From Chthonomonas sp. (GTDB lineage Bacteria > Armatimonadota > Chthonomonadetes > Chthonomonadales > Chthonomonadaceae): a stretch of DNA of 64,000 nucleotides. Within the stretch, counting starts at the first letter, position 1. The number at the start of each line of letters is the position of its first letter. The position numbers and the translations under genes were made by a program. The notes under the pieces were generated by a model, which was not told the DNA's origin, ran no database searches, and saw nothing but the letters and a program-made list of their open reading frames with translations. Location: contig NZ_DATGKU010000174.1 in the NCBI RefSeq assembly GCF_035294505.1, positions 73,610 through 137,609 of the forward strand, read 5' to 3'. This document shows positions 7,566-55,834 of this stretch, in pieces.

Positions 7566-7590
7566 GGGCGGGTTTGAAACCTGCTCCTAC
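7562..7590. repeat. REP-like palindromic element copy 1 (GTAGGGGCGGGTTTGAAACCTGCTCCTAC), bidirectional terminator-like hairpin
   Basis: 13-bp arms (two G-U wobbles on the + transcript) around a 3-nt centre. Overlaps the TAG stop of the + gene (7563-7565) and the CTA (reverse TAG) stop of the convergent - gene (7587-7589). A near-identical perfect palindrome occurs at 31569-31597. Confidence 0.6.
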
Positions 7591-29081: not shown

Positions 29082-29372
29082 GGGGCTGGTCTCCTTAGTT
29101 ATTGTCTTGCGTCAAAGCCTTTGACATCATGACGCGCTGTTCTGGTTTATACAAGTAGCCCCTCAGTCTCGATAACAGCATGCTATATGTTACATCGCGA
29201 ATATTAAGCGGTGGTTAACATAAAATTAATTTTCTATTAAGGCTGCCACCGTTCTCCAAAAACACTCTATGCCGATAACTCTTTCCATCGAGTGAGAGAT
29301 TGAGAGCTAAACCTCATTCGAAGTGTGTATACTAACTCTGCTTCCAAAGTTGTCGTGGAGGGGGAGGAAGGC

Positions 29373-31568
29373 ATGCAAAGGGTCTATCGTCAAATTCTCA
29401 TCTTGGTCGCCGTTGCTCTGGTGCACTTAGCATTGTCTGTCCAAGCCGTATTGGCGGCAAACAGTCGTTCCTATCCGGTGATGCTTGGAGGCATCGGGTC
29501 GGGTGCCGTTCTGCTCGATAACACGGGAACGATTTCCGCTGCAGCGCCCATTCCCGATCGCCCTCGCAGGTTTTCGCCGGATGAAACCGGCTTTCTTGCT
29601 GCACGCATTCGCATTGGGGACGAAACGCATGCCTTCGCCCTCTCTTCTCAGAGTGTGAAGCAAATCCCTTGCCTGCCTTCCTTACTCAGCACTCCTGGAT
29701 TTCCTATCTCCGAGTTTGAAGTGCCAAGCACCGACTCGCCGATAGCAACCCAACTTCGCATCTTCTCTCCCTTCATCCCTCACGATCTGCCCAATTCCAC
29801 GCTGCCGGCAGTCGCCTTTATTGTCACCTTTCACAATCCACTCCCTATTGCGGCCAAGGTAAGCGCGCTCATCTCATGTCCATCGCTCTTCGTAGCCCCC
29901 GACCAGGCCGAGATATTGCCCGCCTCAAATGGCTTCTTTGGAGCGCACATCACGAGCGCACAGGGTGAAACGGCAGTCTATACCTACCCCCAAAGAGGAG
30001 ATGCCACCGTAACCTCCCTGTGCTGGAACGGATCCGAGCAAACGGTAAGTTGGTGGCGTTCCTTTGTGGATACAGGGAACCTCACCGGATCGCAGCAGCT
30101 CCACGAGGTCGCCAAACCGGCCATAGCCCTTGCCGTGCATCTGACACTAGCACCCCACGATCAGGTGCAAATTCCTTTTGTGTTAGCCTGGTACGCCCAC
30201 ACGGCCCAATCGTTTTACTACGCAACCCTCTTCCCGAACGCCACGGCCATAGCCCAACGACTTCTTGCTAACTGGCTTGCGCTTTATGCCCTCACTGCGG
30301 AGTGGCAAGACAACCTTAAGTTTTCAAACCTTCCAAGTCCGCTCATTCAAAGGCTCGGTGACTGCCTTCAACCGCTGCTCACCGAAGCGGCTATAGACCA
30401 CGACGGTTTTCTAAGCATCCCCCGCAGCGATACACGTATGGAAACAGGCTCACTCAGCCCTGCGGAAGATGCGATCAGCAAACAATTGTCTCTCTCTCTT
30501 CCGCTACTTGACCTCTATCCAGACCTGATAGCCAAAGAAATCGAAAGTCTGGGAACGGCCTTTCGGCAACACAAAGATTATGCCGTCGCCGTCCCGCTGC
30601 TGCTGCTCAGCGACGCCTATGTCCGACAAACAGGTAACCTCTTTCTGGTTCAAAACGAGAAGCCCATCCTCCATGACGCCTCTCAAATGCTCGATTCCAC
30701 CTCTCAGCCGACACTCAGTCTGTGGAGATGGGGGGCCCTTTCAGCGGCGGTCTCTCTGGCAAACCTTCTCAATGATAAAGACCTCGCGACGCATCTACTG
30801 CAATCGCTTGCCGAAGAGACCCAAACGATCGGCAACATTTTCCACAATTCCATAACTTCACCCGAGCCTTCCCTCGTGAATCCTTCGCACTGGCTAGTAC
30901 CGGCCGCGCTCCTCCATGCTTTCGACGAAAATCTCTCTTTGCCTATTCCATCCATCCCCCCCACATACCCTAACGTATCTACCATGAACGACATCCTCTT
31001 GCCCGCTTATCTCTACGTCCTTATCATGCAAAACCATCCAGATGCAGGACTACGCTATTCTCTTTCCTACCACCCTATCGAGACGAATAACCCCCTCCAG
31101 TGCATTCTTTGGGGCTTACTTGATGTGTTGTCCGGTTTTCAAGTCGATCAAGTTACCGAAAGTGTCTGGCTTCTACCCGATATCCCCGGCGACTGGCCTC
31201 GCCTGGAATGCCCTATCTTCTCTGCCAATCTTTGGGCCACTCTTCATTACACACCTACAGCCCGAGGCGAAAACATGCGGTTATACATCGCTCGCCTTTT
31301 CGCTCCAGGGCCACTCGCCTATCCCCCTAGCTCCGAACTGCTTCCCAAACTCCCTCCGCCACATCTCATCATCAGGTCACTCTTCATACCGGCACCACCT
31401 CGTGGACTGCATCACCTATCCACGAGTCTTCCGGAAGTCCATCTCAGCCTAGCCCAACGCCCACTTGGTTTTCGCCTGAAGCCCGTTAATCCTTCTGTTC
31501 TCTGCCTGCAACTCGATACTCCCCTGCAATTAACTGCTGGCGATACGCTCGATATTGAAGTCCACTAA
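29373..31568 (+). CDS. Large secreted hypothetical protein
   Basis: ORF track starts at 29325. The ATG at 29373 is preceded by GGAGGAAGG and gives signal peptide MQRVYRQILILVAVALVHLALSVQAVLA. About 730 aa. No family recognised. Confidence 0.5.
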   Translation: MQRVYRQILILVAVALVHLALSVQAVLAANSRSYPVMLGGIGSGAVLLDNTGTISAAAPIPDRPRRFSPDETGFLAARIRIGDETHAFALSSQSVKQIPCLPSLLSTPGFPISEFEVPSTDSPIATQLRIFSPFIPHDLPNSTLPAVAFIVTFHNPLPIAAKVSALISCPSLFVAPDQAEILPASNGFFGAHITSAQGETAVYTYPQRGDATVTSLCWNGSEQTVSWWRSFVDTGNLTGSQQLHEVAKPAIALAVHLTLAPHDQVQIPFVLAWYAHTAQSFYYATLFPNATAIAQRLLANWLALYALTAEWQDNLKFSNLPSPLIQRLGDCLQPLLTEAAIDHDGFLSIPRSDTRMETGSLSPAEDAISKQLSLSLPLLDLYPDLIAKEIESLGTAFRQHKDYAVAVPLLLLSDAYVRQTGNLFLVQNEKPILHDASQMLDSTSQPTLSLWRWGALSAAVSLANLLNDKDLATHLLQSLAEETQTIGNIFHNSITSPEPSLVNPSHWLVPAALLHAFDENLSLPIPSIPPTYPNVSTMNDILLPAYLYVLIMQNHPDAGLRYSLSYHPIETNNPLQCILWGLLDVLSGFQVDQVTESVWLLPDIPGDWPRLECPIFSANLWATLHYTPTARGENMRLYIARLFAPGPLAYPPSSELLPKLPPPHLIIRSLFIPAPPRGLHHLSTSLPEVHLSLAQRPLGFRLKPVNPSVLCLQLDTPLQLTAGDTLDIEVH

Positions 31569-43979: not shown

Positions 43980-44136
43980 TTAATACCCTTGCTGACTGTA
44001 CTAAGCAGTATACCACCCCCAGTTCGATGGAATGTGGAGGTCACCGGAGAGGAGGCCTGCGTCCTCCATCCGCCTAAAGATAGGAAGGAGAATAGGTATA
44101 ATAACCCTTGAAGCTAGCCTATGGGAAGATCGCCCT

Positions 44137-46026
44137 ATGTACCCAAACATCCAAGAAGTCCTTCTGCCCTTCCAACCCAATAAAATCGCGTTCGAGAAGC
44201 TCCTCCTCAAGGAAGCATACCCCGCACCCGTCGACGGCTTCAGCTTCTTCTTCTTTAAACACCATACCCTCGAACACGGACACTTCTTCTCTTTCCTCCC
44301 ACCACAATACCTCGACACCTTCGACTGGGATACTGATGACCACTGGACGGATTTCTGTGCCTTCCTTAGCCCTCGAATATCCGACCTACAAACCTTGAGC
44401 GAAATCGAAAGCCAGACGATACGGGCAAAAGGACACCACCATCAACGCATCGTCTCCCAATGGCTTGCCCATCACCCCCAAGCCTGCATCCTCTGGCAGT
44501 ACGGCGACCCCGATTTCCCAAAACAGATTGCCCCCTTTAACTACCTCCTCTCCTACGATGCCGACCTCTATCTGCTCCTCACACACCAACAGTTCCGCAC
44601 CTACGGAGAGAACGCCATCGGCAGAACACGATCTGTCAACTTGGGCGGTTACCCCTCCTTCTTTGTTCTCACCCTCCTCCCGCCCCATTTCCCCCAACAA
44701 CCTAGCCCCGCGGCCCTCACCATTCCCCCCGATGTCCTCGAATTTATGGCCGCCCACACCCAACTCCTCGGACTGGCAGGGGTCTTTCAAGGAACCGTAG
44801 ACATCCTCTGGCAACGAGACCCCCAACCTCGCTATCCCTTCACCCCACGCTACGGCCTCTGCACCGGTGCCTCCCCTACAGGACATCTCACCACCCTCAA
44901 CGGAGGCCAAGCCCAACAAGGACTCCTCCTCAATCTCTCCCCTAACCAACCCCCACAAATCGTCCATCCCTTTGCAGCAGACCCTGCAGGCCAACCGGTA
45001 GCCGGCCTCCGAAGGGCCCCCAACGGCACCCTCTACGGCATTACCCTCCGAGGAGGAGACTTCGATACCGGAACCCTCTACGCCCTCGACCCCAACACCC
45101 AAACCGTCGAGGTGCTCTACCAAGGAGAAGAGGGAGGGCCACGACACCCCATCGGATTGCCGGTCTGGACGGAGGAGGGAGGCCTCTACGGGGTGAGTTT
45201 GTTCGGAGGCCAACACAATGCCGGCACCCTGTATCGCTTCGACCTGCAGAGCAAACAGATGCAGATACTGCACAGTTTTGCGGGGCCGGAGGGCGCCCAT
45301 CCGTTGGAGGCACTGGTTTTAGGAGCGGATGGCTGGCTGTACGGCATGACGGATGCCGGAGGGGAGCATGGGGAGGGGGTGCTGTTCGGCTACCACATCC
45401 CCCAAAGACGCTTCGAGGTTTTATGGCACCTGTGCAGAACTCCTCTGAGCAGGAAAAAGGCCAAGCAAAACCGGTCAAAGGAAGTCCCTACAACCTACTC
45501 TTCGGACATAGTAGGAGGTGCCAGTCTGTTATGGCACCCACAGGGCGCCTTGTACTATCCTTTTAATCAATTTGTTAATCTGTTTGGTCAAGAGAGGTCC
45601 GCAGATTCCTCTTCCTCGGAGGGCACGCCATCGGGTTCTGTGCAGGAACGGAAGGTCTATCGTTATTGGGTGAAGGAGCGTCGTTGGGAGCGAGTGGTTT
45701 TTGTGCTTGGGGAGGAGCCGGTGAGTTGGAGGGATTATCATAGCTGGTCATGGTTTCTGGGTACGGACGGGCGGATTTATGGGACTGATGGTCGTGTGAT
45801 TTATCGTTGGGAAGTGGGAGAAGAGGAGGGGGAGATACTGTATCGTTTGCCGTATTATAAGCGGAAGGAGGAATATGGGAAGGGTGAGGCGATGCATGGG
45901 ATAGGGGATTTTGTGTTTGGGGAGGACGGTTATGTGTATGCATGGAACTGGCACTATGTGTATGGTTTGAACATGCAAACGGGGGAGTGGCGTCTCTTGC
46001 TGCGGTATGATGAGGCAATAGAATAG
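44137..46026 (+). CDS. Hypothetical protein with GTLYG-type beta-propeller-like tandem repeats. Gene shows extreme intragenic GC-skew flip
   Basis: ORF track 44032..46026. The ATG at 44137 follows a TATAAT box (44097-44102). Repeats GTLYGITLRGGDFDTGTLYALD / GGLYGVSLFGGQHNAGTLYRFD / GWLYGMTDAGGEHGEGVLFGY. See finding for the compositional anomaly. Confidence 0.45.
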   Translation: MYPNIQEVLLPFQPNKIAFEKLLLKEAYPAPVDGFSFFFFKHHTLEHGHFFSFLPPQYLDTFDWDTDDHWTDFCAFLSPRISDLQTLSEIESQTIRAKGHHHQRIVSQWLAHHPQACILWQYGDPDFPKQIAPFNYLLSYDADLYLLLTHQQFRTYGENAIGRTRSVNLGGYPSFFVLTLLPPHFPQQPSPAALTIPPDVLEFMAAHTQLLGLAGVFQGTVDILWQRDPQPRYPFTPRYGLCTGASPTGHLTTLNGGQAQQGLLLNLSPNQPPQIVHPFAADPAGQPVAGLRRAPNGTLYGITLRGGDFDTGTLYALDPNTQTVEVLYQGEEGGPRHPIGLPVWTEEGGLYGVSLFGGQHNAGTLYRFDLQSKQMQILHSFAGPEGAHPLEALVLGADGWLYGMTDAGGEHGEGVLFGYHIPQRRFEVLWHLCRTPLSRKKAKQNRSKEVPTTYSSDIVGGASLLWHPQGALYYPFNQFVNLFGQERSADSSSSEGTPSGSVQERKVYRYWVKERRWERVVFVLGEEPVSWRDYHSWSWFLGTDGRIYGTDGRVIYRWEVGEEEGEILYRLPYYKRKEEYGKGEAMHGIGDFVFGEDGYVYAWNWHYVYGLNMQTGEWRLLLRYDEAIE

Positions 46027-46141
46027 ACAATGCTACTTCCATCCCGCTGCCGGCTTGCCCTGAAGGTTACAGACAACATCCTTCTCGCGAAACAGTATAA
46101 TTAAATGATGAGCTATCATCTGCAGAGGTAAGGACTATCTT

Positions 46142-46696
46142 ATGCACGACCGACAGGCCGCTTGGCAGCTGGTAACCGAATGGACGCAAAGCGAAAGCCT
46201 TCGCAAACATATGCTTGCAGTAGAAGCCGCCATGCGCTTCTATGCGCGCAAATTCGGTGAGGATGAGGAGCTTTGGGGCAATACCGGACTTCTACACGAT
46301 TTTGATTATGAACGCAATCCCGATCCGCCCGAGCACCCCACCGTCGGCATGAAAGTGCTCGCCGAACAGGGCTGGCCTCCGGAGATGATCGAGGCGATCG
46401 GAGGCCATGCGGAGTATCTTCATATTCCTCGCACCACCCTCCTGGCCAAAACTCTCTATGCCGTAGATGAGCTTTGTGGGTTCATTCTCGCCGTGGCCTA
46501 CACCCGTCCTTCTCGCACTTTGGCCGAGGTCGAAGTGAACTCCGTGCTCAAAAAAATGCGGCAGAGCGGCTTCGCCAGAAACGTCAGCCGAGAAGACATT
46601 GTGCGTGGAGCCGAGGAGCTTGGTATTCCTCTTGAAGAGCATATCGCCAACTGCATTGAAGCCCTCCAGTCCATCGCGCCTAGCTTAGGGCTTTGA
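46142..46696 (+). CDS. HD-domain phosphohydrolase
   Basis: LHDFDYE and MLAVEAAMRFYARKFGEDEELWGNTGLLHD (H...HD metal-binding motif). 184 aa. Confidence 0.7.
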   Translation: MHDRQAAWQLVTEWTQSESLRKHMLAVEAAMRFYARKFGEDEELWGNTGLLHDFDYERNPDPPEHPTVGMKVLAEQGWPPEMIEAIGGHAEYLHIPRTTLLAKTLYAVDELCGFILAVAYTRPSRTLAEVEVNSVLKKMRQSGFARNVSREDIVRGAEELGIPLEEHIANCIEALQSIAPSLGL

Positions 46697-46698
46697 AT

Positions 46699-49359
46699 TT
46701 AGGGAGGGGTTAAAAGCTTGTGCCGTTGCATATCGTAAAGAAAATGCACCGGATGGGCTGTATGCAGTATCTGCTTGCCATCTAGATAGACGGCAAACCC
46801 GCGAAAGTCTTTCGCGATATGGCCACCTTCCGCATCGTAGGCGAGGGTGATGTCGTGCCCTCTATAGGCTTGTCCATCTAAAATCCACCAACGCCATGCC
46901 CCATCCGGCAACAGAGGGTCTATTTCAAGAACGTCATCGGCACGCGGAACAAACCCAATGAGGTCGCTGATTAACGGATCGATCCATGTGGAGTGGAAGT
47001 AATCCCGCTGATCGGTTTTCCATTGCCCCGTTTCCCCATTGTAGAACTCGCCCGTCCATGGGTAGAGCGGATTCTGGTTTTTATACTGCGCCTTCGTAAA
47101 CGAGTAGAAAAGCTCGTAAAGCTTCTGACGGGTGAGCGCACAAGGAGCGTAGTGGCGCAGGGTGTTTGTCATCGCCCGCATCACTAAACTATTGGCATGA
47201 GGCCATGTGGGCCCGTTCCACATGCACACGCTTCCTCCAGGGCCAACGGGCCAGCCATCTTGAGAGTAGGCGGGGCAACTCTTTGCCGTAGATGCGATCG
47301 GCCATGGCGTCCAAAAGAGATTGGGGTTCAGCGCCGTTTCCCAAACCGTTTCGTAGCCCTTACCCGCGGGTGGAAGATTAAAAGCGAACGGATAGAGACC
47401 GATCACCTCCAAAGCCGGCGAAGGCGCATCATCTGAAGCCCGTAAGTCCACAAACCAGTGATCTTTTGCATCCCACATTTTCTCGATAACAGCCTCACGA
47501 ATGGCCTTCGCCAACTGTTCCATCTTCTCGGCTTGGGCGTTGCGCCCCAATAACCGGTCAATTTTGGCCACCGCCACCGCATTACCGTAGTTGTAGGCCG
47601 TGAGGTCCACACGGCGCAGCGGAGTCATGTATTTCGGATCGGTGCCTGCTCCGCCTCCGGTCTCATAATGGGCAAACGAAAAGAAGGCTGGCTGCCACTC
47701 CATGCCCGTCCACCAATGGCTATCTACTACCAAAAGCGGACTGCCGCCCCAACCGTAAACCTTCTGCCACCCCTCCACGTTGCGCTCGAGAGCCGGGGCG
47801 ATCTTTGCCAGGAGAGCTTTGTTCGGATGTACCTCGTTCAACCCCCAGGCACAAGAGGTGATCCAGTCTGTGTACTGCCCTCCTTGCTGTCCCTGCAAGG
47901 TTACATGGCTCGGATAGATGCCGTCAGGACGAGGATTGCTTACAAAAGTCAACAGATGCCCCCAACAGTAGGAGGGGTCACGCAACCACCGCGCCTCATA
48001 CATCTGATGCCCGGCCCCGTAAGAGATCACGTTGGCATACCAGTCGGAAGTCCAACGCCCCTCCGAGAAGGCGCGATACATAAGGTGCCCCATGCGTGGG
48101 TTCATGCTGTTCTTTTTCAGTAAGTACCAACGATGGTAATACATTTTCGTTATAAGGGGATCGCTGCAGGCAAAGTAGGCGATGTTCTTGTCAAACCACC
48201 CCTGATAGGCCGCCACTTGCTGTGCTAAAGGATGAATAGAGTGTAATTCAGCCTCTAGCTTCTCGTGCGCACCCGAGCGAGAGGTTGCAAGCGCACAGGC
48301 GAAAAGAAAACGTCTCGCGGTCTTGGCAGGAATTTGCTCGGTAAAACGAATTCCCTCCCCCTTCCCATCGAACCCAACGGCCTCTAACCATACCGGATAG
48401 CCATCTATGCTTCGCATCTCCTTAAAGCGATCGGAGGCCGATTTTAAACCGGATGACATCACGATGGAAAAAGGATGCGCCGTTGTTGAGGGGTTTGTCA
48501 CCCGAATTTCTGCGACCAGCACATCGTTCTGAGTGATCCACTTGTCCCCTTCGATGTGCAATGGAGAGTGAAACTCTTGCTGCTTTGCTTCGGGCGCATA
48601 GTGCGGGTCAAAACCATACAGCCCGGTATATAGATTTGTCCCACGATGATGAAATACCAGCTGCACCCTTTCTGCCAGCTGGGGCGGGTCGAAACGCAGG
48701 GTGTTTTTATCCGGCTTCAGGTCTGTTAAAAGGTGCCCCCAAGGCACCCATCGCCCATGCCGATAGAATAGAACCTCCATCTGCGCCGGCGGCGCACATC
48801 CCCCACCTCGTGGGACGTCGTTGTAAAAATAGAGGTCTAAACCGGTGAGCTTTCGCAAGCCACCCAGAGCGACCGTGTACGTATCCACCCGATGCCCGCT
48901 GGACCAACAAGTCCATCGCTTTTCAGGCACAAAGGGGGGAGTTAACGGATTCTGGGCATTGTCTATAACATAAGTAAAGGAGGCCGTTGCTTTTAACAGC
49001 GTTCCAGGCGCCCCCACCATATGCACATGGCTTGGAGTGTATGTCGCTCTTTGCACGATGTACGATTGACCGTCTGCGGCTACGTCAAGGTCAAAAGCAT
49101 CGAGATTGGTGATGTAAAGTAGCTGCACCCCATCACGAAACGCCCATCCTTGCGGGCTTGTGGCCCAAACACGATCCCCAGAGGCCCCGAAGGGAACCGT
49201 GCTATCATAAGGCCGAGCCAAAATCTTGTCTATCGAAAAACGGCTAGCGGGAAACACACGGTGCGCTAAAGGCTTCGGCGGAAAGCTGGCTTTTGCTCCC
49301 CTACCACAACTGCCGAACAGAAGCAGCGTACCCAGGCAAACAACCCCATATCGTTTCAA
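46699..49359 (-). CDS. Large secreted hypothetical protein (886 aa), possible glycosidase
   Basis: TTG start with AAGGAG 8 nt upstream. Signal peptide (M)KRYGVVCLGTLLLFGSCG. No family confidently recognised. Confidence 0.5.
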   Translation of the reverse strand: MKRYGVVCLGTLLLFGSCGRGAKASFPPKPLAHRVFPASRFSIDKILARPYDSTVPFGASGDRVWATSPQGWAFRDGVQLLYITNLDAFDLDVAADGQSYIVQRATYTPSHVHMVGAPGTLLKATASFTYVIDNAQNPLTPPFVPEKRWTCWSSGHRVDTYTVALGGLRKLTGLDLYFYNDVPRGGGCAPPAQMEVLFYRHGRWVPWGHLLTDLKPDKNTLRFDPPQLAERVQLVFHHRGTNLYTGLYGFDPHYAPEAKQQEFHSPLHIEGDKWITQNDVLVAEIRVTNPSTTAHPFSIVMSSGLKSASDRFKEMRSIDGYPVWLEAVGFDGKGEGIRFTEQIPAKTARRFLFACALATSRSGAHEKLEAELHSIHPLAQQVAAYQGWFDKNIAYFACSDPLITKMYYHRWYLLKKNSMNPRMGHLMYRAFSEGRWTSDWYANVISYGAGHQMYEARWLRDPSYCWGHLLTFVSNPRPDGIYPSHVTLQGQQGGQYTDWITSCAWGLNEVHPNKALLAKIAPALERNVEGWQKVYGWGGSPLLVVDSHWWTGMEWQPAFFSFAHYETGGGAGTDPKYMTPLRRVDLTAYNYGNAVAVAKIDRLLGRNAQAEKMEQLAKAIREAVIEKMWDAKDHWFVDLRASDDAPSPALEVIGLYPFAFNLPPAGKGYETVWETALNPNLFWTPWPIASTAKSCPAYSQDGWPVGPGGSVCMWNGPTWPHANSLVMRAMTNTLRHYAPCALTRQKLYELFYSFTKAQYKNQNPLYPWTGEFYNGETGQWKTDQRDYFHSTWIDPLISDLIGFVPRADDVLEIDPLLPDGAWRWWILDGQAYRGHDITLAYDAEGGHIAKDFRGFAVYLDGKQILHTAHPVHFLYDMQRHKLLTPP

Positions 49360-49476
49360 ACTTCGAGACTCCTTCAGGCTTTTTTGGAAGAAGGTTCGTC
49401 AAACCGCTCCTTCTATCCTGCCGATGTTTGCAGAGACAAGCTCATAAAGAGAAGACCTCAAACCCATGATAGAGCC

Positions 49477-50997
49477 TTAACGTCCCTTTAGCCACCTATC
49501 TCGAAGGGCAATAGCCTCCTCAGCAGCGCCTGGGATGGGTTCACAATCCGCATCTAGTCCTGCATGAGCAAGGCACGCGCCAAAGGGCATCTCTTCCGTT
49601 GTTTGTATCAACCTATTGTAAAAGTCAGATAAATCGCTTGCAGCCACCTCATTGATAGCGTTTCGCAATTCTTCTTCCGTATAGCCAGCATGTGGAGGGG
49701 CATAGCGACGCAAAAGAAGGCGCATTACATCGGCCAGACTTCGCGTGTTGTGCGTCACATAACGCAACTCAAGATCGAGACAAAGACCTATTAACGCACC
49801 CTTATCATAGTAGGATAGCCCCTCGTAGCCTTCACTGTTGCCGGCGTCCCACACATGCCAGCTCGCCTGCTCTGCGCTTACCTGTAGCCGCGCCGGATTG
49901 GCCATGTAGCTCTGAATAGCTCGCCGCCAGTGAGCTAAAAACTGTTGCGGTGTAATGAGGCCCGCACGTAAAATAGATAGCCAAGCGAAATAGTCCGTTA
50001 CGCCCTCCACAAACCACAGGCTGCGTGTATGAGGGGGATGTACGTAGTCGAACGGCCCCAACACCTTCGGACGAATCCGTTTGACATTCCACAAATGGAA
50101 AAACTCGTGGGCGGCGAACGCGGCGAAATCGGTTAAGGTCTCCTCCGGTAGATACACCAAACGCGCTGAGTTTCGATGTTCTAACCCTCCTCCACGGCCA
50201 TCTACATCGAAGTAGAAAATGTATTGCGAATAAGGCAGACCTCCCATCATCTCCCCTTCCGCTTGCACAATACGCTGCAAAGTCTTTGTGAGGGTCTGAG
50301 GCTCCGTTACCTCCTGCGGATGATCGAAAAAGATCACGCGGTGGACAATACCGTCTACCACGAACTGCTGTATCAGCAGGTCGGCAGGCGCAGCGATGAG
50401 AATCGGCGAATCGGTGAGCGCGTCGTAGTCCTCTGCACTATAGACAACACTTTCAGCCGTCTGCTCGGGTGTGAGCGGCACGATCACCTGCCAACCTTTG
50501 GGCGCATCCACCTCGAGTCGAGTAGGGCACTCTTTCTCACCCACCACGTAGAGGAAAGCGGCCGTCCCGCTCACGAAAACCTGGTCGGGCCTTATCTGCA
50601 CGTTCTCACAAAAAATGCCGGGCGGCTCTTGGGGAACTCTATAGGAGATAACGACATCCTCCGCAACATTCGTCTGCACTTGCCAGGTGTTTTCATCGAG
50701 CCGTTTTATAGCCAATGCATGGCCGTATCCGTCTTCCGCCCGCAAACGGGAAACGTATTGGGCAAAATTCTGCACATGGTAGTCGCCCGGACACCACACA
50801 GGCATCTGCAAACAGGGGTTTTGCACTTCGGGCACTCTCAGCGTGATCTCTAAATAAGGCGTGTTGCCCCAAATCGGCTTTAGACGATAGCTAATCGTCC
50901 CCTCGGAGGAGGGGGGCGCCGCCGCATAAGCACCAGCACCTTTTGCGAGTACATAACAAAGAAAAACCCCTATGATATGCCGGCAAACACGCATAGC
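49477..50997 (-). CDS. M61-family glycyl aminopeptidase-like metallopeptidase
   Basis: HEFFHLWNVKRIRP (HExxH...WN) matches the M61 signature as I recall it. Preferred start MRVCRHIIGVFLCYVLAKGAGAYA (signal peptide) at 50997 rather than the tracked 51060. Confidence 0.6.
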   Translation of the reverse strand, partial: AMRVCRHIIGVFLCYVLAKGAGAYAAAPPSSEGTISYRLKPIWGNTPYLEITLRVPEVQNPCLQMPVWCPGDYHVQNFAQYVSRLRAEDGYGHALAIKRLDENTWQVQTNVAEDVVISYRVPQEPPGIFCENVQIRPDQVFVSGTAAFLYVVGEKECPTRLEVDAPKGWQVIVPLTPEQTAESVVYSAEDYDALTDSPILIAAPADLLIQQFVVDGIVHRVIFFDHPQEVTEPQTLTKTLQRIVQAEGEMMGGLPYSQYIFYFDVDGRGGGLEHRNSARLVYLPEETLTDFAAFAAHEFFHLWNVKRIRPKVLGPFDYVHPPHTRSLWFVEGVTDYFAWLSILRAGLITPQQFLAHWRRAIQSYMANPARLQVSAEQASWHVWDAGNSEGYEGLSYYDKGALIGLCLDLELRYVTHNTRSLADVMRLLLRRYAPPHAGYTEEELRNAINEVAASDLSDFYNRLIQTTEEMPFGACLAHAGLDADCEPIPGAAEEAIALRDRWLKGR

Positions 50998-50998
50998 G

Positions 50999-52330
50999 CT
51001 ACTCCTTTTTGGCCGGAAGCCCCATCGGAACCCGTGCCGAAGCCACCTGTGTGGCTGCATACAGTCCGGTTTCTAGCAGTTTCAGCGTCGTTCCTCCCGC
51101 CCCGAGCGGGCGGTTTCGTGCGGTGGCATAGACAATATAGGACCGATCGGGCGACCAGTCCATGTCCGCGCTGTCTATTGTCCCCACCACCCAGTGGCGC
51201 CCTGTGCTGAGATCGAACACGACAACATCAAAGCGAGAGCCATGCGGAGAAAGCGCCCCTACCTTGTCTAGCCCGATCCATTCTGGCGCAAAATAGCCTT
51301 TTCCGTCTCGTGGGCTAATGCGTCGTAGATGCCTGCCCCGCGCATCCACCGTCCATATCTCATACCGATGAAAATTGAGGGCGTCCGGCGTAAGCACGAA
51401 GGCCAGAGCGCGTCCGTCGGGTCTCCATACGATGTCGCCGATCCGCAGAGCGATATTGGAGGAGCGTTGATTTGCCGGCAGCGTCGCGAGATAGTCTCTC
51501 GCGCGTACTCTCACGATCTCAGCAGCCGCACCCTGTTGTGCGCTTCCGGGTTGCAGACGCCGAATCGTCTCGGTGTTAGGCGCGGCGAGAGCATGAACAA
51601 TGCCCTGCCGAAATGCTAAAACGGGTTGGGGGTCGGCACGGGTGGGCAGTGTCGGGCGCCAGACAGGCCAGTCGCTTTGGGTATAGACATCGAAACGAGG
51701 TGGTATCTCCTGTGGCAGCTGATGGGCGTGGAGCGGATGCACAAAAATAGCTCTCTGCCCGTTGATCCCCTCACCGACAAAAGCCACATAACGACCGTCG
51801 GGCGACCATACAGGGGTATGGTAGAAGTAGAAAAGAGAGTGATAGGGCGTCTTATGCAGAGCGAGCGGGGCGAGGGCACCGCTAGCGATATCCAGCAACC
51901 ATAACCCTGTGCCGGGCATCCATGCCCCATCCTCAAACCGAAACCACTCTGTGCGCTCGATGGCGAGCTGACGATCGTTAGGCGACCAAGAGAGCCTATC
52001 GGGGCTACTGTAGCTCTCCCAACTCGCGTCAAACGGTCGATCGGGATTGATCATCTCCGGTCGCAGCAACGGAACCACCCGGTGCAGTCGGGCATCAACC
52101 ACGCATAATTGGTACCGTTCATCAGACAGAGCGCGCAAAAAGGCGATATAACGCCCATCGTGAGACCAACGTGGCGCGATGTCGCAGAAGCTCAAAGGGC
52201 CTGACGCCCTCTCTCTTCGCAAAGACTTAGGGACCCCGCAACTCATCAAACAAAGGAGGAGGAAGAACCAAATCAGCCTCCTTCCTCCTCCCTCTAAAAG
52301 ACGATACCGTTGACTCGTTGGCCAATACAT
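50999..52330 (-). CDS. TolB-like PD40 beta-propeller repeat protein
   Basis: WSHDGRYIAF, WSPDGRYVAF, WRPDGRALAF and DWSPDRSYIVYAT are repeated PD40 motifs. Signal peptide. Confidence 0.65.
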   Translation of the reverse strand: MYWPTSQRYRLLEGGGRRLIWFFLLLCLMSCGVPKSLRRERASGPLSFCDIAPRWSHDGRYIAFLRALSDERYQLCVVDARLHRVVPLLRPEMINPDRPFDASWESYSSPDRLSWSPNDRQLAIERTEWFRFEDGAWMPGTGLWLLDIASGALAPLALHKTPYHSLFYFYHTPVWSPDGRYVAFVGEGINGQRAIFVHPLHAHQLPQEIPPRFDVYTQSDWPVWRPTLPTRADPQPVLAFRQGIVHALAAPNTETIRRLQPGSAQQGAAAEIVRVRARDYLATLPANQRSSNIALRIGDIVWRPDGRALAFVLTPDALNFHRYEIWTVDARGRHLRRISPRDGKGYFAPEWIGLDKVGALSPHGSRFDVVVFDLSTGRHWVVGTIDSADMDWSPDRSYIVYATARNRPLGAGGTTLKLLETGLYAATQVASARVPMGLPAKKE

Positions 52331-52341
52331 AACCGTTTGAA

Positions 52342-53463
52342 CTACTCGCAGGTGAGAATGCGCTTCACCACATCAATTACGTTGGCCACCTCGCCCGACT
52401 CCTGGGCCTGCTGTAACCTATCACGCACGGAATAGATGGCAAGCGCCTTCTTCATTGCGTTTGCAAACAACTCCTTTGAAAGCCGCATCGCACGCACCGG
52501 GTCCATGCGGTAGGTAAACTGGTCTTCACCAAACCAACCATCGTAGCCCGTATCTACCGCAGCATAGCAGAACTCGGCGAGGCGCCAGATGTCGTCGGTG
52601 CCCGTTACACGGTCTTCGTCGTTCGAATTGTACTTTGCGGCATTGATATGGAAGTTGGCAATGGGCACTCCCATTCGCTTCAACAAATAGAGACTATCGG
52701 CAGGCTGGTTGCCCACCATCTGCTCGTGGCCGTAGTCTATCACCACGCCCATTGCGGTCGTCCCCAAGGCCTCGTTCACCGTCTTGGCAACAAGTGCGGC
52801 TTTCGCAGTGGTATTGAGGATCATATTGCCTTCCCGTGGCTCTTTCTGCTTGGCCTCGGTGCCAAACAGCAGGCCATAGCCATTGGCCTTTCGAGCGATC
52901 TCCACGCACCCCTCGATAAACCAATCGAGCTGTTTTCCGTAGTTCACCTCAAAATGGTAGTCCCACCCATCTGAACCGGGCCAAAGCTGCACACTGCGCG
53001 TGCCCACTCGCTTGGCGATCTCCACCGTCTGTAAGCAGTAGTCCAGCGCCTCACGACGACGCCCCGGATCGGGGTTTGTGATGCTGCCCATTCGAAAACG
53101 CGCCCTTGTCCAGATGTTCGTGTTCATGTTGGTCGCGATCAGGTTATGCGCCTGCAGAGCCTCTTTCACAGTACGAATAGCATTATCATCAATTTGAAGA
53201 TGCTCGTCCAGAAACATCTCATTGTTCAACTCGATCCCCTTTATACCGGCCTCCGCCACACGGGCTATCTGCCCCACCGCGCTCTCATCCAGGGGGACTT
53301 CGGCATAGGAACGGCAGAATCGATCGCTGAACCCACCGGCGCACCAGTGGCCGGCAGAGAAGTTGATACCGTAGGTCTCAAAAAACTGGTCTACCCGCTC
53401 CCCTTCGAGATAGCCTCGGAATTGCGAAGAGAGCAGCGCTAGGTTCTCAATGTTGACGCGCAT
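52342..53463 (-). CDS. xylA: Xylose isomerase (class I)
   Basis: FSAGHWCAGG (cf. FTFGLWTVG), EPREGNMILNTTAKA (cf. EPKPNEPRGDILLPTVGHA) and the catalytic GVVIDYGHEQMVG (cf. GVNPEVGHEQMAG) motifs. 373 aa. Confidence 0.8.
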   Translation of the reverse strand: MRVNIENLALLSSQFRGYLEGERVDQFFETYGINFSAGHWCAGGFSDRFCRSYAEVPLDESAVGQIARVAEAGIKGIELNNEMFLDEHLQIDDNAIRTVKEALQAHNLIATNMNTNIWTRARFRMGSITNPDPGRRREALDYCLQTVEIAKRVGTRSVQLWPGSDGWDYHFEVNYGKQLDWFIEGCVEIARKANGYGLLFGTEAKQKEPREGNMILNTTAKAALVAKTVNEALGTTAMGVVIDYGHEQMVGNQPADSLYLLKRMGVPIANFHINAAKYNSNDEDRVTGTDDIWRLAEFCYAAVDTGYDGWFGEDQFTYRMDPVRAMRLSKELFANAMKKALAIYSVRDRLQQAQESGEVANVIDVVKRILTCE

Positions 53464-53793
53464 CGTTGTAGTTCCCCTCTACAGAGTTTGACTTTCTGTA
53501 TGTTTCGCCCTCTGCAAGAGGAGTTCCTGCTTAGGTCTCTTGGAGCATCTCCCATCCCAAAAACCTCTCCAATCCCACAAGCTACCTTTGCGCAGAGGAT
53601 ACACCGGCGAGGCCTACGAGAACCTATCTTCAAAACCAACAAAAGAAGGAATCTCACCGCAGCGATGGCGAAATAGCATTTTGCAAAGAGATGCCGACAC
53701 ATTTCAACCATTGAAACCAAAATCGCGTTTTTTCGATATTCTAAGTGAAGGACGAAAATCGGTGCGAGCGCTCTTTGCAGCGAGGAAAGGCCC

Positions 53794-54408
53794 ATGATTA
53801 CTTTCATTGTGCTGATGTTTACGGGCTTAATCGGGCTTGTGCTCATGGCGCTTCCGGGGTTCCTTCACCATGGCGGTCAGCTCTCCCATGCGGTACACAC
53901 CCCCCATGCGCCGATTGGTGCCCATCACGGGGTTCATCTTCATGCGCCCTCCGTCGCCAAAATCTCGGCAAAGATGGGCAAGCCCAACTGGCTGCGCCTT
54001 GTTCCATCGCCAAGGGCTATCTTTTCCTTTCTGGCGGCCTACGGCGCCTTCGGAGTGCTCTTCATGGCAGGTCTGCACTTCTCGGCAACGCTGTCAGCAT
54101 GGAGCGCCATTCTACCCGCTATTGCCTTTGAACGGTTTGTCCTTCGGCCCTACTGGAACTGGCTCACCAGCTTTGGCGCCACACCGGCCTCTCCGTTAAC
54201 CACTTTGGTGTTTACCGAGGCGGTGGCCGTCTCCAATTTTCAAAACGGCCGAGGCATCGTTCAGGTAGAACACGATGGCCGTGCCGTGCAGATGATGGCC
54301 TATCTCACCCCGGAACAGTGCCATATGCCCGTGCATGTTGGAGACCGACTGCGCGTGGAGTCGGTAGATGAAAAGAAAGAGCGCCTCACCGTTTCGTTGT
54401 CGCATTGA
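53794..54408 (+). CDS. NfeD-like membrane protein (short form with C-terminal OB-fold)
   Basis: TM helices at the N-terminus. C-terminal GRGIVQVEHDGRAVQMMAYL...VGDRLRVESVDEKKERLTVSL resembles the NfeD beta-barrel. Immediately upstream of an SPFH/flotillin gene. Confidence 0.5.
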   Translation: MITFIVLMFTGLIGLVLMALPGFLHHGGQLSHAVHTPHAPIGAHHGVHLHAPSVAKISAKMGKPNWLRLVPSPRAIFSFLAAYGAFGVLFMAGLHFSATLSAWSAILPAIAFERFVLRPYWNWLTSFGATPASPLTTLVFTEAVAVSNFQNGRGIVQVEHDGRAVQMMAYLTPEQCHMPVHVGDRLRVESVDEKKERLTVSLSH

Positions 54409-54451
54409 GATGTCCTCATGACCGTTTGAAATAAAATAAGGAGATAGAAAC

Positions 54452-55834
54452 ATGGATAACTCGACTATGTGGATCGTCATCGCCTGTGCCGTGCTTTTAG
54501 CGGTGATTATTCTCGTCCCCATCATCGTGAATGCCTTCTACCGCACGGTAGATGCCGGCCAGATACTGCTGGTGAGCCGACCCGGAGGAGGGCCTCCGCG
54601 GGTTCACCGCGGCCCCTGCAAGGCCTGGGTCATTCCCCTCCTCACCGCCACCCAAGTGATCCCGGCTCAAGCCATTAATGTGGATATTGACATCACCGAC
54701 CAAACTGCCGATGTGGATGCCAATGGCAGACCGGCCCCGGTAAAGGTGAACGTGAAAGCCTCTGCCATCGTCAGCGTCGGGGAAAGCGATTCGATGGTGA
54801 TCACGGCGGCAAATAAGTTCTTCTCAAAACCGCCAGCAGACCAGCTTTCCACCCTCACCGACGTGCTCTCCTCCGCCGGACGACGCGCCATAAACCTCCT
54901 CACCCTCGACCAGCTCTTCAACGCCCGAACAGCCCCCTCTCCTGCGGCAACCACCTCGCTTGTGCCTGCAGGCGTTAGCGATGTGTTGGCACGCGGAGAG
55001 GACGACGCCTTGGCTGTGATCATTAAAGAAGCCTGCTCTCGTAAACTGCAAGACCTTGGGCTTACCTTCAACAGCCTCAACATCAAGGCTGTGCTTAGCG
55101 ACGTGGCCGAAGCGCGGCGTCGCGAATCGGCAGCACGCGCCAAAGCCAGCGCCGACGTGGTGCAAGCGCAAGAGGAACAACGCGCCCGCATCGCCCAACT
55201 CGTTGCACAGCAGAAGATCAACGATCAGGAGCGCGAGCTGAATATGCAGATCGCCGCCAATGGCGCCGCCGTTGCACGCGCCGAGGCCGAGCGCATGCAG
55301 GCCGTGCGCACCCAACGAGAGGCCGAACTGGCCGCCACCCAGATCACTCAAGCGCGCGCCGACGCCGAGCAGACCGTCATCAAACAAGAGGCAGAGGGTC
55401 GAGCGCAAGCTGCCCGCATTCGTGCCATCGCGGCCGCAGAAGCCGAATCCATCCAAATGAAGGCGAAAGCCCTCGCCGAAGCCGGACCGGCCTACCTCGA
55501 GCTGCGCAGGCTTGAATTGGCTCCCGAATTAACACGCCAGATATCGGCAGCTCTCTCCAATGGGCAGTTCATCAACTTCGGGACTGCCGGCAACGACGGC
55601 CATACAGCAGCCACTACCGCATCAGACGATGTGATGCGCGTGGTGCAAACGCTCATGGCCGCCCAGGTCATTGCCAACAGCAACTTCGGTGGAAACCATA
55701 AATCCGAGGAGCCGGCTGCCCCCACCTCTCTCCCCTCCTCGCAACAGCCCGCCGCTCCCTCCATAAGGCCGGCCTCTCCACCCGCCCAGCCTGCCATTAA
55801 GCCCGACCAGAAACCGAACCAACCAAACCGATGA
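54452..55834 (+). CDS. Flotillin-like SPFH-domain protein with long Ala/Arg/Glu/Gln coiled-coil
   Basis: N-terminal TM, an SPFH-like region, an extended EA-rich coiled coil (ARRRESAARAKASADVVQAQEEQRARIAQLVAQQ...) and a Pro-rich C-terminus. Paired with the NfeD gene. Confidence 0.7.
   Translation: MDNSTMWIVIACAVLLAVIILVPIIVNAFYRTVDAGQILLVSRPGGGPPRVHRGPCKAWVIPLLTATQVIPAQAINVDIDITDQTADVDANGRPAPVKVNVKASAIVSVGESDSMVITAANKFFSKPPADQLSTLTDVLSSAGRRAINLLTLDQLFNARTAPSPAATTSLVPAGVSDVLARGEDDALAVIIKEACSRKLQDLGLTFNSLNIKAVLSDVAEARRRESAARAKASADVVQAQEEQRARIAQLVAQQKINDQERELNMQIAANGAAVARAEAERMQAVRTQREAELAATQITQARADAEQTVIKQEAEGRAQAARIRAIAAAEAESIQMKAKALAEAGPAYLELRRLELAPELTRQISAALSNGQFINFGTAGNDGHTAATTASDDVMRVVQTLMAAQVIANSNFGGNHKSEEPAAPTSLPSSQQPAAPSIRPASPPAQPAIKPDQKPNQPNR

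Follow-up and report, generated by a model that had tools for sequence, protein, structure and literature searches.

A GRINS-like flip of GC skew inside a repeated, Rhs-associated GloVer gene of Chthonomonas

Within the 64-kb stretch of Chthonomonas sp. DNA analysed here (the window), the strongest GC skews of both signs fall in one plus-strand open reading frame, 44137..46026, which encodes a protein of 629 aa. We think it probable, taking the two statements jointly, that the flip from C+A-rich to G+T-rich within this frame belongs intrinsically to a 1.96-kb cassette, in which it is conserved, and not to the chromosomal position, and that it is explained by a GRINS-like, recombination-linked strand bias acting on that repeated cassette; the evidence points to such a bias over hypermutation. 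The cassette occurs at two loci per genome, locus A following cobA-hemD and locus B following an Rhs toxin tip, with different flanks. The parts of the cassette, as found in the window, are these:

44096..46058, plus strand: repeat unit (cassette), 1963 bp (1.96 kb), made up of the gene, 41 nt upstream and about 32-59 nt downstream
44097..44102, plus strand: TATAAT hexamer at the left cassette edge, 35 nt 5' of the ATG, read from the sequence
44137..46026, plus strand: CDS, 629 aa, with an N-terminal domain, three GloVer repeats (TIGR03803) and, at the C-terminus, degenerate repeats
44137..45036, plus strand: C+A-rich, G-starved (5') zone, N-terminal domain, residues 1-300
45037..45576, plus strand: central weak-skew zone, three GloVer repeats (about residues 286-432) and linker
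45577..46026, plus strand: G+T-rich, C-starved (3') zone, C-terminal degenerate repeats
45231..45232, no strand: A-to-B switch point of the window contig, recombination junction or assembly join
44386..45300, minus strand: antisense ORF, 304 aa, codon-aligned antisense to a frame without TTA, CTA and TCA
45575..46042, minus strand: antisense ORF, 155 aa, omega 2.19 against contig L003

The GC skew of the plus strand is about -0.42 to -0.45 across 44.1-45.1 kb of the gene and about +0.57 to +0.6 across 45.6-46.0 kb; in 200-nt windows it runs from -0.30 to -0.49 (44100-45099) and from +0.41 to +0.62 (45600-45999), and background is regained within about 100 nt outside the start and stop codons. 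The cumulative skew reaches its minimum at about 45000-45199 and the sign changes at about 45100-45250. The first-pass annotation had drawn attention to this gene from hand counts (about 19 G and 48 C in 44581-44700, about 10 C and 48 G in 45841-45960), which exact counting alters by a single base at most (49 C beside the 19 G in the first stretch, 47 G beside 11 C in the second), and it was right to expect sliding windows to mark it as an outlier: the two zones are the most extreme 300-nt and 500-nt windows in all 64 kb, for which the 300-nt windows have a mean skew of -0.10 (sd 0.11). Measured as skew3 over sliding 100-codon windows, the gene extends from -0.90 to +0.85, as against -0.63 to +0.52 in 757 background windows, and passes through -0.43, +0.14, +0.06 and 0.00 in the central zone. 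The runner-up among the skewed regions of the window, 30751-31550 in the C-terminal part of a GH116-like gene, has a skew3 of about -0.5, and is judged ordinary because this lies within the range of other plus-strand genes.

Third codon positions carry 55-57% C and 7-12% G in 44137-45036, and 48% G, 33% T and 8% C in 45577-46023. The bias peaks at four-fold degenerate sites, with 63.5% C and 7.1% G in the 5' zone and 52% G, 28% T and 9% C in the 3' zone (chi-square p = 3e-19 between the zones), compared with 43% C and 21.5% G in the remaining plus-strand genes. Purines occupy a fraction of 0.27 of these sites in the 5' zone and 0.63 of them in the 3' zone, with the background at 0.37; transitions alone cannot bring about such a shift, so that transversions or selection must contribute. 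The two zones mirror each other, C+A against G+T: the plus strand of the 3' zone has 18 runs of three or more G and none of three or more C, and that of the 5' zone has 36 runs of three or more C. GC and TA skews are correlated in the gene, at r = 0.43 (p = 6e-4) for all sites, against -0.06 in the background, and at r = 0.74-0.80 for third positions. The amino-acid composition follows, as had been noticed at the outset from the abundance of P, L, F, H, Q and T in the 5' half and of W, G, E, Y, V and R in the 3' half; the counts agree, with L 13%, P 11%, Q 8%, F 8%, T 6% and H 5% in the 5' zone and E 13%, G 12%, R 9%, Y 9%, V 8% and W 6% in the 3' zone. Selection on amino acids as the sole cause is ruled out because four-fold and two-fold sites are themselves skewed; the skew acts on the nucleotides, and the amino-acid composition is pulled along.

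Two further candidates were tried and set aside. No signature of a context-specific deaminase was seen: TC, at 1.27 in both zones, shows no depletion, and the dinucleotide profiles of the two mirror zones are uncorrelated (r = 0.03). Pairing of the 5' and 3' parts at the RNA level gives a duplex of -321 kcal/mol, compared with -311 +/- 9 in composition-matched shuffles, and no long inverted repeat was found between the C-rich 5' zone and the G-rich 3' zone.

All the sequences compared are metagenome assemblies, with complete and partial copies of the cassette drawn from NCBI, JGI, ENA and Logan data. The full flip is present in the complete copies on L010 (a 129-kb JGI contig; locus A) and on L003 (NCBI) and L011 (ENA; both locus B), and the flip is found in partial copies as well. 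What defines the cassette is the stretch that the locus A copies share with the locus B copies, and the skew domain has the same extent. On the left, homology of six contigs to the window (L001, L003, L004, L006, L009, L011) begins at 44096-44098, and on the right it ends at 46058 (L007, L002) or 46085 (L010). Outside these limits the GC skew is modest and negative on both sides at both loci (left and right flanks: -0.12 and -0.08 in the window, -0.12 and -0.09 in L010, -0.16 and -0.06 in L003). The TATAAT at the left edge could be a -10 element that belongs to the cassette, though this is only a lead, since a promoter scan found no -35 to match it.

The assembly GCA_035294165.1 carries both copies, on L003 and L009; these are 90% identical over 691 bp, a length limited by a contig end. 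L010, a full-length locus A copy, is identical to L009 in the overlap; its identity to L003 is 91% in the 5' zone and 99% in each of the central and 3' zones. The 64-kb window holds no second copy, and that of its own strain is found on L011, whose right flank is identical. In both strains the A and B copies are 91-92% identical in the 5' zone and 99-100% identical in the central and 3' zones, compared with 92% identity (8% divergence) in the 3' zone between the strains. In both of these strains the homogenised tract starts somewhere within 45030-45260, and its edge, which like the skew sign change lies in the central zone, falls at that sign change. The 5' zone is a mosaic among strains, L011 being the same as L001 over 44096-44596 with 34 mismatches beyond, and the paralogue P0003 has 93% nucleotide identity over 44992-45432 only, a converted central block. 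The A and B copies thus compared evolve in concert, their central and 3' parts probably being kept alike by gene conversion.

The window contig itself passes from one locus to the other. Its left flank is collinear with the locus A contigs L009 and L010 and its right flank with the locus B contigs L003 and L011, and against L011 it has 81 mismatches in 44106-45231 and none in 45232-55026; the copy in the window is an A/B hybrid at 45231/45232, whether by genuine recombination or through a join made in assembly. The first-pass annotation had warned of a chimera near 45.2 kb, and in this it was correct, but its suggestion that such a join might account for the flip fails, given that the full flip stands at locus A (L010) and at locus B (L011 and L003) alike.

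Selection on the protein persists. The plus-strand frame has omega values of 0.42, 0.18 and 0.22 in the three zones, indicative of purifying selection. Between strains, the four-fold sites of the 5' zone differ by 3.5-13%, as against 24.8% in the flanking genes, which counts against simple hypermutation, and the hypermutated locus that had been considered plausible is not borne out as a recent event; this low synonymous divergence leaves selection, biased conversion or recent exchange between strains as possible causes. Synonymous changes that can be polarised are few (13-18 per zone) and may include recombination imports. Among them, C in the 3' zone was gained 3 times and lost 5 times, where the expected P(gain) is 0.88 (P = 0.0009), and T was gained 7 times and lost twice (P = 0.0008); among recent changes on the plus strand of this zone, C>T stands at 4/12 as against 0/75 for G>A. 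Recent synonymous changes in the 5' zone are compatible with the background process. Of the biased substitutions predicted for each half, then, the C>T excess of the 3' zone is present and a counterpart in the 5' zone is not, and the skewing process seems to go on in the 3' zone, which converts, and to have relaxed in the 5' zone, which does not. The founding mutation spectrum, sought at sites conserved among paralogues, gave no signal, the changes being too few.

Of particular relevance here are the GRINS reported in 2021, chiefly from polyketide synthase genes of Streptomyces (Nivina et al. 2021; PMC8256042). By definition they are longer than 500 bp, match a second region in their genome or cluster at over 80% DNA identity, and have a mean |GC skew| above 0.15 and a mean |TA skew| above 0.15, and the survey covered five phyla, Armatimonadota not among them (PMC8256042). 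By the same measures, with 150-nt windows and a step of 30, the Chthonomonas cassette is a duplicated coding segment of 1963 bp whose copies are 90% identical over the 691 bp available in GCA_035294165.1, and its mean |GC skew| is 0.343 in the window and 0.350-0.358 in three other copies, against a background of 0.132. Its mean |TA skew|, 0.140 in the window and 0.126-0.135 in the others (background 0.124), falls just below the threshold; at third codon positions the figure is 0.19-0.24. The descriptive features of GRINS are likewise present: C+A-rich sequence turns abruptly G+T-rich within 1 kb of one strand, an intense GC skew is positively correlated with TA skew and maximal at third positions, Pro, Thr, His and Gln rise where the skew is negative and Gly, Val and Trp where it is positive, the product is still a functional protein, and gene conversion takes place between copies, at domain boundaries. 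The cassette closely resembles GRINS, matching them on all tested criteria but the formal TA-skew threshold, and because of this resemblance the flip is considered unusual but no new kind of phenomenon. The differences, besides the TA skew of 0.13-0.14, are that the host belongs to the Armatimonadota, that the gene is Rhs-associated, immunity-like and of the GloVer type, neither a polyketide synthase nor a transposase gene, that whole-gene cassettes at two loci take the place of modules within one gene cluster, and that the strongly skewed 5' part of the cassette escapes homogenisation.

A second comparison is offered by the vls system of Borrelia, in which the coding strand has a GC skew of about 0.52 compared with 0.18 for the chromosome, G-rich coding strands go together with gene conversion, and a non-converting paralogue is without skew, from which selection for skew has been inferred (PMC11499132). 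It shares with the present case a very high GC skew bounded by the gene and sequences diversified or homogenised by gene conversion. In vls, however, the skew has a single sign along the cassette and the G runs are clustered, conversion is one-way from silent cassettes to one expression site, the location is a linear plasmid and the role is immune evasion, while in Chthonomonas the sign flips within one ORF and the two copies that exchange sequence by conversion both look expressed.

In the explanation that we consider probable, copies of the cassette at the two loci would recombine, the 3' and central part being homogenised by gene conversion and the C+A-rich 5' part staying about 9% divergent and mosaic. 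A strand-specific bias tied to the recombination or gene-conversion intermediates would enrich G+T on the exposed strand, acting either on mutation of the transiently single-stranded DNA or on the fixation of alleles, and purifying selection would preserve the protein meanwhile. The early suggestion of single strands exposed in opposite ways agrees with the mirror symmetry of G+T and C+A and the C>T excess on the plus strand of the 3' zone. A more specific version, put forward tentatively and in our view more apt to be wrong than right, ties the sign of the skew to position in the conversion unit, C+A to the left and G+T to the right with the flip at the tract edge, and attributes it to strand-specific events in the intermediates of recombination. 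Such events could be deamination or biased repair of the single strand in resected 3' tails or R-loops; the converted part would then still be gaining C>T on the plus strand, and the non-converted part would be drifting back to background.

Transcription might also write such an asymmetry, if G-rich sense transcripts of the 3' zone formed R-loops that expose the plus strand and start recombination, and an antisense promoter mirrored this in the 5' zone. The polarity suits divergent exposure of non-template strands, the G and C runs are distributed as this would have them, the 3' zone is the converting part with the C>T excess, and in Borrelia vls gene conversion occurs alongside G-rich coding strands (PMC11499132). 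A promoter-like site does lie on the minus strand at 45881..45854 (10 of 12 matches), but the two such sites found are no excess over the 1.3 expected in shuffles, antisense RNA from 45854 would start C-rich, and the 5' zone has no ongoing bias. The transcription-associated skews that we know of in bacteria are, moreover, much weaker than those seen here. As an explanation in its own right this seems unlikely to us, and it may underlie the GRINS-like pattern instead of truly competing with it. We think it just as unlikely that mutation is unbiased and that the skew is kept by selection on the nucleotide sequence, to promote or confine recombination of the cassette or for a function at the RNA level. 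Four-fold divergence 2-7 times below that of the flanks in the 5' and central zones (3.5-12.9% vs. 24.8%), the survival of the skew through 8% divergence, and the proposal of the GRINS authors that skew raises the frequency of conversion (PMC8256042) would all agree with this; recent exchange of cassettes between strains explains the low divergence equally well, however, and is supported by the mosaic mismatch maps, the complementarity between 5' and 3' RNA is no greater than composition gives, and it is the strongly skewed 5' zone that is left unhomogenised.

The remaining possibilities are weaker. A chimeric gene, with halves of opposite mutational history (from opposite replication strands or foreign donors) joined at about 45.2 kb, would suit a family that recombines at domain boundaries, as in the P0003 mosaic, a tract edge at 45030-45260, a contig that is hybrid at 45231/45232 and zones that behave differently today. 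It is nevertheless quite improbable: no homologue or paralogue of uniformly extreme skew was present among the sequences found, the N-terminal domain family numbers just 7 proteins in 1.84 billion representatives, the four-fold sites of this genome show a replication-linked skew of only about 0.2, far under the 0.7-0.8 of the gene, and both halves are collinear in one frame with paralogues of normal composition, an alignment over the full length of the protein that also disposes of an assembly from two foreign segments. Slighter still is the chance that two unrelated sequences mis-joined at about 45.2 kb created the flip; the window contig does pass from locus A to locus B there, and for at least 827 bp the copies do not differ at all, a length beyond what short-read assemblers resolve, but the ORF is unbroken and homologous to paralogues across the junction, and a mis-join is refuted as the cause of the skew because both parental loci (L010; L011 and L003) carry the whole of it. 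A local replication origin or strand switch, or the origin of an integrated replicon, is hardly more credible. The order of negative and then positive skew is that of an origin, as had been pointed out, but the skew domain is 1.9 kb long and stops at the limits of the 1.96-kb unit, the flanks share one sign (-0.06 to -0.16) on both sides at both loci, and the switch sits inside a conserved coding repeat that is under purifying selection.

The protein itself is identical to the NCBI entry 'choice-of-anchor tandem repeat GloVer-containing protein [Chthonomonas sp.]'. The GTLYG-type repeats recognised at first sight, in what is indeed one uninterrupted frame across both halves, belong to TIGR03803 (110.3 bits against a cut-off of 44, E = 2.6e-32, in three stretches). 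Like other TIGR03803 proteins it has three GloVer repeats, but typical members are larger, secreted, equipped with T9SS or other anchors and of normal composition; this protein is without a sorting domain and, judged by eye, without an obvious signal peptide, and its N-terminal domain is private to it. A profile of that domain finds 3 proteins in a set of 5.8 billion and 7 in the representative set of 1.84 billion, the latter mostly from one small lineage-specific family, and the protein is specific to this Chthonomonas lineage. Of the five array paralogues profiled on L001 and L007 (L007 602..2362 makes a sixth), four have a skew3 of about -0.6 to +0.25. The AF2 model is unreliable (mean pLDDT 39.8), and no contig was found carrying P0075.

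An ORF for an Rhs core and tip precedes the gene on the same strand at locus B, its stop lying 90 nt ahead of the start of the gene (L003 6613-7911, with the tip at about 7170-7911: TIGR03696, E = 2.5e-21; TIGR01643, E = 1.7e-6; PF05593, E = 4.8e-6), and the same order, with an orphan 222-aa tip, recurs in L011 and L001. In the window, cobA-hemD lies directly upstream and the toxin is absent. Because the family sits in arrays beside Rhs C-terminal toxin tips, we infer from gene position that the protein is a candidate immunity-type partner of the tip, for which neither Pfam nor the PDB has a relative. The YD repeats, Rhs-associated core and variable C-terminal tip upstream at locus B, the paralogue arrays interspersed with orphan tips on related contigs, and an array GC of 50% against 54-56% for the chromosome are all as in polymorphic toxin-immunity modules. 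A protein of 629 aa with propeller-like repeats is, in contrast, far above the typical size of an immunity protein, and the toxin is missing from the window. Our search of the literature found no report of intense skew as a feature of Rhs loci.

These observations extend the GRINS-type phenomenon to the deep-branching Armatimonadota and to the Rhs-associated genes of conflict systems, and illustrate how skew can reshape the amino-acid composition of a protein while purifying selection persists. A compact two-copy cassette, with clear unit boundaries, one half homogenised and the other not, and several natural alleles, may be a far simpler system for finding what writes GRINS skews. Should the sign of the skew prove to be tied to position in the conversion unit, the cassette may reveal how such skews arise, and a candidate polymorphic-toxin immunity gene would be in the course of being recoded by a recombination-linked process. 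On the practical side, a contig that is hybrid inside a repeat is a warning for synteny based on metagenome-assembled genomes (MAGs). The two long minus-strand ORFs, dismissed as junk from the beginning, carry a similar lesson: 44386..45300 has an omega of 0.83 and a stop inside it in L003, 45575..46042 has the omega of 2.19 given above, and neither matches Pfam, so that both are rejected as genes and are compositional by-products, traps of base composition for gene callers.

The GC-skew flip that the first-pass annotation reported inside a single repeat-protein gene (44137..46026, + strand, 629 aa) is real and holds in detail, although its interpretation proved only partly correct. Its hand counts stand, with exact figures of 19 G against 49 C for 44581-44700 and 11 C against 47 G for 45841-45960. 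In 200-nt windows, GC skew lies between -0.30 and -0.49 across 44100-45099, crosses zero at about 45100-45200, remains near zero or weakly positive until 45600 and reaches +0.41 to +0.62 across 45600-45999, and no more than about 100 nt from either the start or the stop codon it is back at background. At both the 300-nt and 500-nt scales the gene holds the two most extreme GC-skew windows in 64 kb (window-wide mean -0.10, sd 0.10-0.11). The effect is strongest at third codon positions, with 55-57% C and 7-12% G over 44137-45036, and 48% G, 33% T and 8% C over 45577-46023. Sliding third-position skew runs from -0.90 to +0.85 here and within -0.63 to +0.52 in the other genes of the window, bearing out the remark that no neighbouring gene is like it.

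Base composition at four-fold degenerate sites (independent of amino-acid choice), and four-fold divergence between strains
5' zone, 44137-45036, + strand, C+A-rich: C 63.5%, G 7.1%, T 9.6%; divergence 3.5-12.9%
Central zone, 45037-45576, + strand: divergence 6.7-8.9%
3' zone, 45577-46026, + strand, G+T-rich: C 9%, G 52%, T 28%; divergence about 15-16%
Other + strand genes: C 43%, G 21.5%, T 20.6%
Flanking genes: divergence 24.8%

The 5' and 3' zones differ in four-fold composition at p = 3e-19, and the purine fraction at these sites is 0.27 and 0.63, respectively, against a background of 0.37, a shift that transitions alone are insufficient to cause. Reverse-complemented, the 5' zone (G 0.40, T 0.23, A 0.20, C 0.17) nearly matches the 3' zone (G 0.39, T 0.27, A 0.21, C 0.13), so the gene contains two mirror-image domains, the first C+A-rich and the second G+T-rich.

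A Chthonomonas sp. (Armatimonadota) MAG protein in NCBI, named 'choice-of-anchor tandem repeat GloVer-containing protein', matches the ORF that starts with the ATG at 44137 without a difference. The three TIGR03803 repeats of the ORF (110 bits vs. a cut-off of 44) lie between a private N-terminal domain, about 285 aa long, and degenerate repeats on the C-terminal side. The N-domain family is tiny, with 7 matches among 1.84 billion representative proteins, most of them in the same small lineage-specific family. Sequence comparison shows that the + frame is a true coding frame. Its alignment with paralogues of normal composition is full-length, and omega against the orthologue in the related contig L003 is 0.42 in the 5' zone, 0.18 in the central zone and 0.22 in the 3' zone. 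On the same kind of comparison the long antisense ORFs, dismissed as junk at first reading, are compositional by-products, with omega of 0.83 and 2.19 and, in L003, a stop that breaks one of them; overlapping antisense genes were rejected on these figures as the cause of the flip. The JGI gene caller places a 442-aa antisense gene inside a related copy (L010 8836-10164, minus strand), so the compositional ORF misleads automatic annotation.

Together with 41 nt on its upstream side and about 32-59 nt on its downstream side, the gene forms a repeat unit or cassette (44096 to 46058/46085) that occurs in related contigs at two kinds of locus, which co-occur in assembly GCA_035294165.1 (L003 and L009). 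A TATAAT hexamer at 44097-44102, exactly on the left edge of the unit and 35 nt before the ATG, may be a -10 element carried by the cassette itself.

Sites of the cassette, and its paralogues on JGI contig Ga0209061_1003113 (L001 1-13531 plus L007 1-10209)
Locus A (L010; L009, which ends inside the gene): ALAD, cobA-hemD (minus strand), gene, YtxH/YbjN/GcvT/RecG
Locus B (L003, L011, L001, L004): Rhs fragment or orphan tip, gene, HD, GH63-like gene, M61
L007 602..2362: paralogue
L001 1-1344: paralogue, reaching upstream into L007
L001 3447-5258: paralogue
L001 8001-9794: paralogue P0003
L001 9810-11552: paralogue
L001 12527-end: paralogue

The copy in the window is a hybrid of the two. Its left flank is that of locus A, collinear with L009 back to 38136 and with L010 to 35131, and its right flank that of locus B, collinear with L003 out to 53967 and with L011 to 55026. 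The window differs from L011 at 81 sites across 44106-45231 and at none across 45232-55026, so that an A-type 5' part continues as sequence matching the locus B contig throughout. As the two copies have at least 827 bases of identical sequence in common, the hybrid may be the assembler's path through the repeat or a true recombinant. A mis-assembly at about 45.2 kb, proposed as a trivial source of the flip, does not account for it, since the full pattern is present on three separate contigs, L010 for locus A and both L011 and L003 for locus B.

At locus B in L003, an ORF with YD repeats and an Rhs-associated core (TIGR03696, E = 2.5e-21) stops 90 nt upstream of the gene, and its variable tip has no known relatives in Pfam or the PDB. 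In L003 6613-7911, L001 11769-12437 and L011 2161-2829, the Rhs C-terminal tip has a Gly/Ala-rich linker and, after it, about 120 aa bearing an H-N-D-L-G-H ... P-H-W-D-W-H motif; the tip may be an undescribed toxin domain, and the position of the gene beside it suggests a putative immunity-type partner. The six paralogues of the JGI contig are interspersed with small ORFs, orphan Rhs-type tips and a 394-aa membrane protein. Four profiled paralogues besides P0003 have ordinary composition (third-position skew about -0.6 to +0.25), and P0003 shows a mild form of the same polarity; the extreme skew is thus derived in this cassette and is no requirement of the protein family. The array has 50% GC vs. 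54-56% in the chromosomal flanks, and of the contig's two termini one holds a cassette 3' end and the other a cassette 5' part. Short, intensely negative patches (third-position skew -0.8) lie inside small array ORFs at L001 1801-2150 and 6974-7123. A degenerate copy with a different N-terminus (L002 1-1552, Logan SRR24490440) lacks two internal in-frame segments that the window has, and the related protein P0066, another degenerate copy, shifts to a different frame beyond the window protein's residue ~150; decay of some copies is possible.

Copies of the cassette undergo gene conversion. Identity patterns among the sequences compared, all of them metagenome assemblies, point to two strains, window/L011 and L010/L009/L003. 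Within a strain, loci A and B are 91-92% identical in the 5' zone and 99-100% identical in the central and 3' zones, while between strains the 3' zone is only 92% identical, indicating concerted evolution of the 3' kilobase. In both strains the homogenised tract has its edge at 45030-45260, coinciding with the skew sign change and with the boundary between N-domain and GloVer repeats. P0003 is likewise a mosaic, in which exactly the three-GloVer-repeat block (window 44992-45432, L001 8829-9269) has been converted, with 93% nucleotide identity between flanks of about 35-45% protein identity. Its last 105 nt are 82% nucleotide-identical to the window gene, and its first 300 nt have a strong negative third-position skew of their own (-0.70, -0.56) without nucleotide similarity to the window. 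The 5' zone is also mosaic among strains, L011 equalling L001 over 44096-44596 before 34 differing sites.

Several causes of the flip can be weighed against these results. The origin-like switch first suggested is contradicted by flanks of the same skew sign at both loci, and a chimera of segments with opposite histories is without any plausible donor. Selection on amino acids was rejected as the sole cause on the composition of four-fold sites, and specific RNA pairing between the 5' and 3' parts of the gene was not supported. We polarised synonymous changes unique to one lineage and compared base gains and losses with a reversible background matrix from 2463 four-fold sites of the flanking genes. 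The 5' zone fits this background (C 4 gains, 11 losses; expected P(gain) 0.32), and its C-richness is thus, if anything, relaxing. The 3' zone departs from it, with C 3 gains and 5 losses against 88% gains expected (P = 0.0009), T 7 gains and 2 losses against 23% gains expected (P = 0.0008), and, at third positions, C>T in 4 of 12 Cs vs. G>A in 0 of 75 Gs (P = 2e-4). This is suggestive of a skewing process still active in the 3' zone, graded so because the counts are small and imported alleles possible. The locus is not hypermutated, as had been thought plausible, since cassette four-fold divergence is below the 24.8% of the flanking genes; the lower synonymous divergence points to fixation bias (sequence selection or biased conversion) or to recent exchange of cassettes among strains.

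This leaves a recombination-linked, strand-specific bias that is intrinsic to the cassette and whose molecular steps we infer. Single strands exposed in R-loops or in resected tails might be mutated, or, equally possibly, conversion or selection might be biased. Exposure at R-loops fits the 3' zone, which is rich in G runs, converting and gaining C>T, but for the 5' zone would require a putative antisense transcript; a promoter-like site at 45881..45854 is the sole pointer to it, and shuffles contain sites of this sort just as often.

The cassette has a close parallel in GRINS, defined as duplicated regions of >500 bp and >80% identity with mean |GC| and |TA| skews >0.15 (PMC8256042). These have correlated skews, abrupt G+T-rich/C+A-rich switches within 1 kb, an effect that peaks at third positions, and more Pro/Thr/His/Gln at negative and Gly/Val/Cys/Trp at positive skew; their products are functional, they are linked to gene conversion and present in several phyla and gene families, and their mechanism is described as unknown (PMC8256042). 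The cassette agrees in length, duplication, codon-position and amino-acid effects, gene conversion, mean |GC| skew (0.34-0.36, above the threshold) and skew correlation (r = 0.43 overall, 0.74-0.80 at third positions). Its mean |TA| skew of 0.126-0.140, however, falls narrowly under 0.15, and for this reason we term the cassette GRINS-like without counting it as a GRINS in the formal sense. In Borrelia vls, a gene-bounded high GC skew (~0.52) is likewise tied to gene conversion, but has a single sign (PMC11499132), whereas that of the cassette flips. The cassette is best filed with GRINS, as a case from a new phylum and a new, Rhs-associated, immunity-like gene class. Later papers citing GRINS are confined to PKS biology and add no mechanism; a small two-copy system in which the tract edge coincides with the skew sign change could make that mechanism testable.

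Four-fold sites across the window (1-64000) are C-rich on the + strand in either gene orientation, and this C-rich strand carries two thirds of the genes. Genes on the + strand have a four-fold skew of -0.33, and minus strand genes have one of +0.12 on their coding strand, which implies two components, about -0.22 from the strand and about -0.10 from the coding strand. The second most skewed stretch, 30751-31550 (raw GC skew -0.48), is the Pro/Leu/Ser-rich C-terminal part of a GH116-N-domain gene (29325..31568), and its third-position skew of only about -0.5 is inside the range of other + strand genes. The highest TA-skew block, within 54452-55834, lies in the gene for a 460-aa membrane-anchored protein, SPFH/flotillin-like by eye, with a long Ala/Gln/Glu-rich coiled-coil-like region, and owes its TA skew to the amino-acid composition of that protein.
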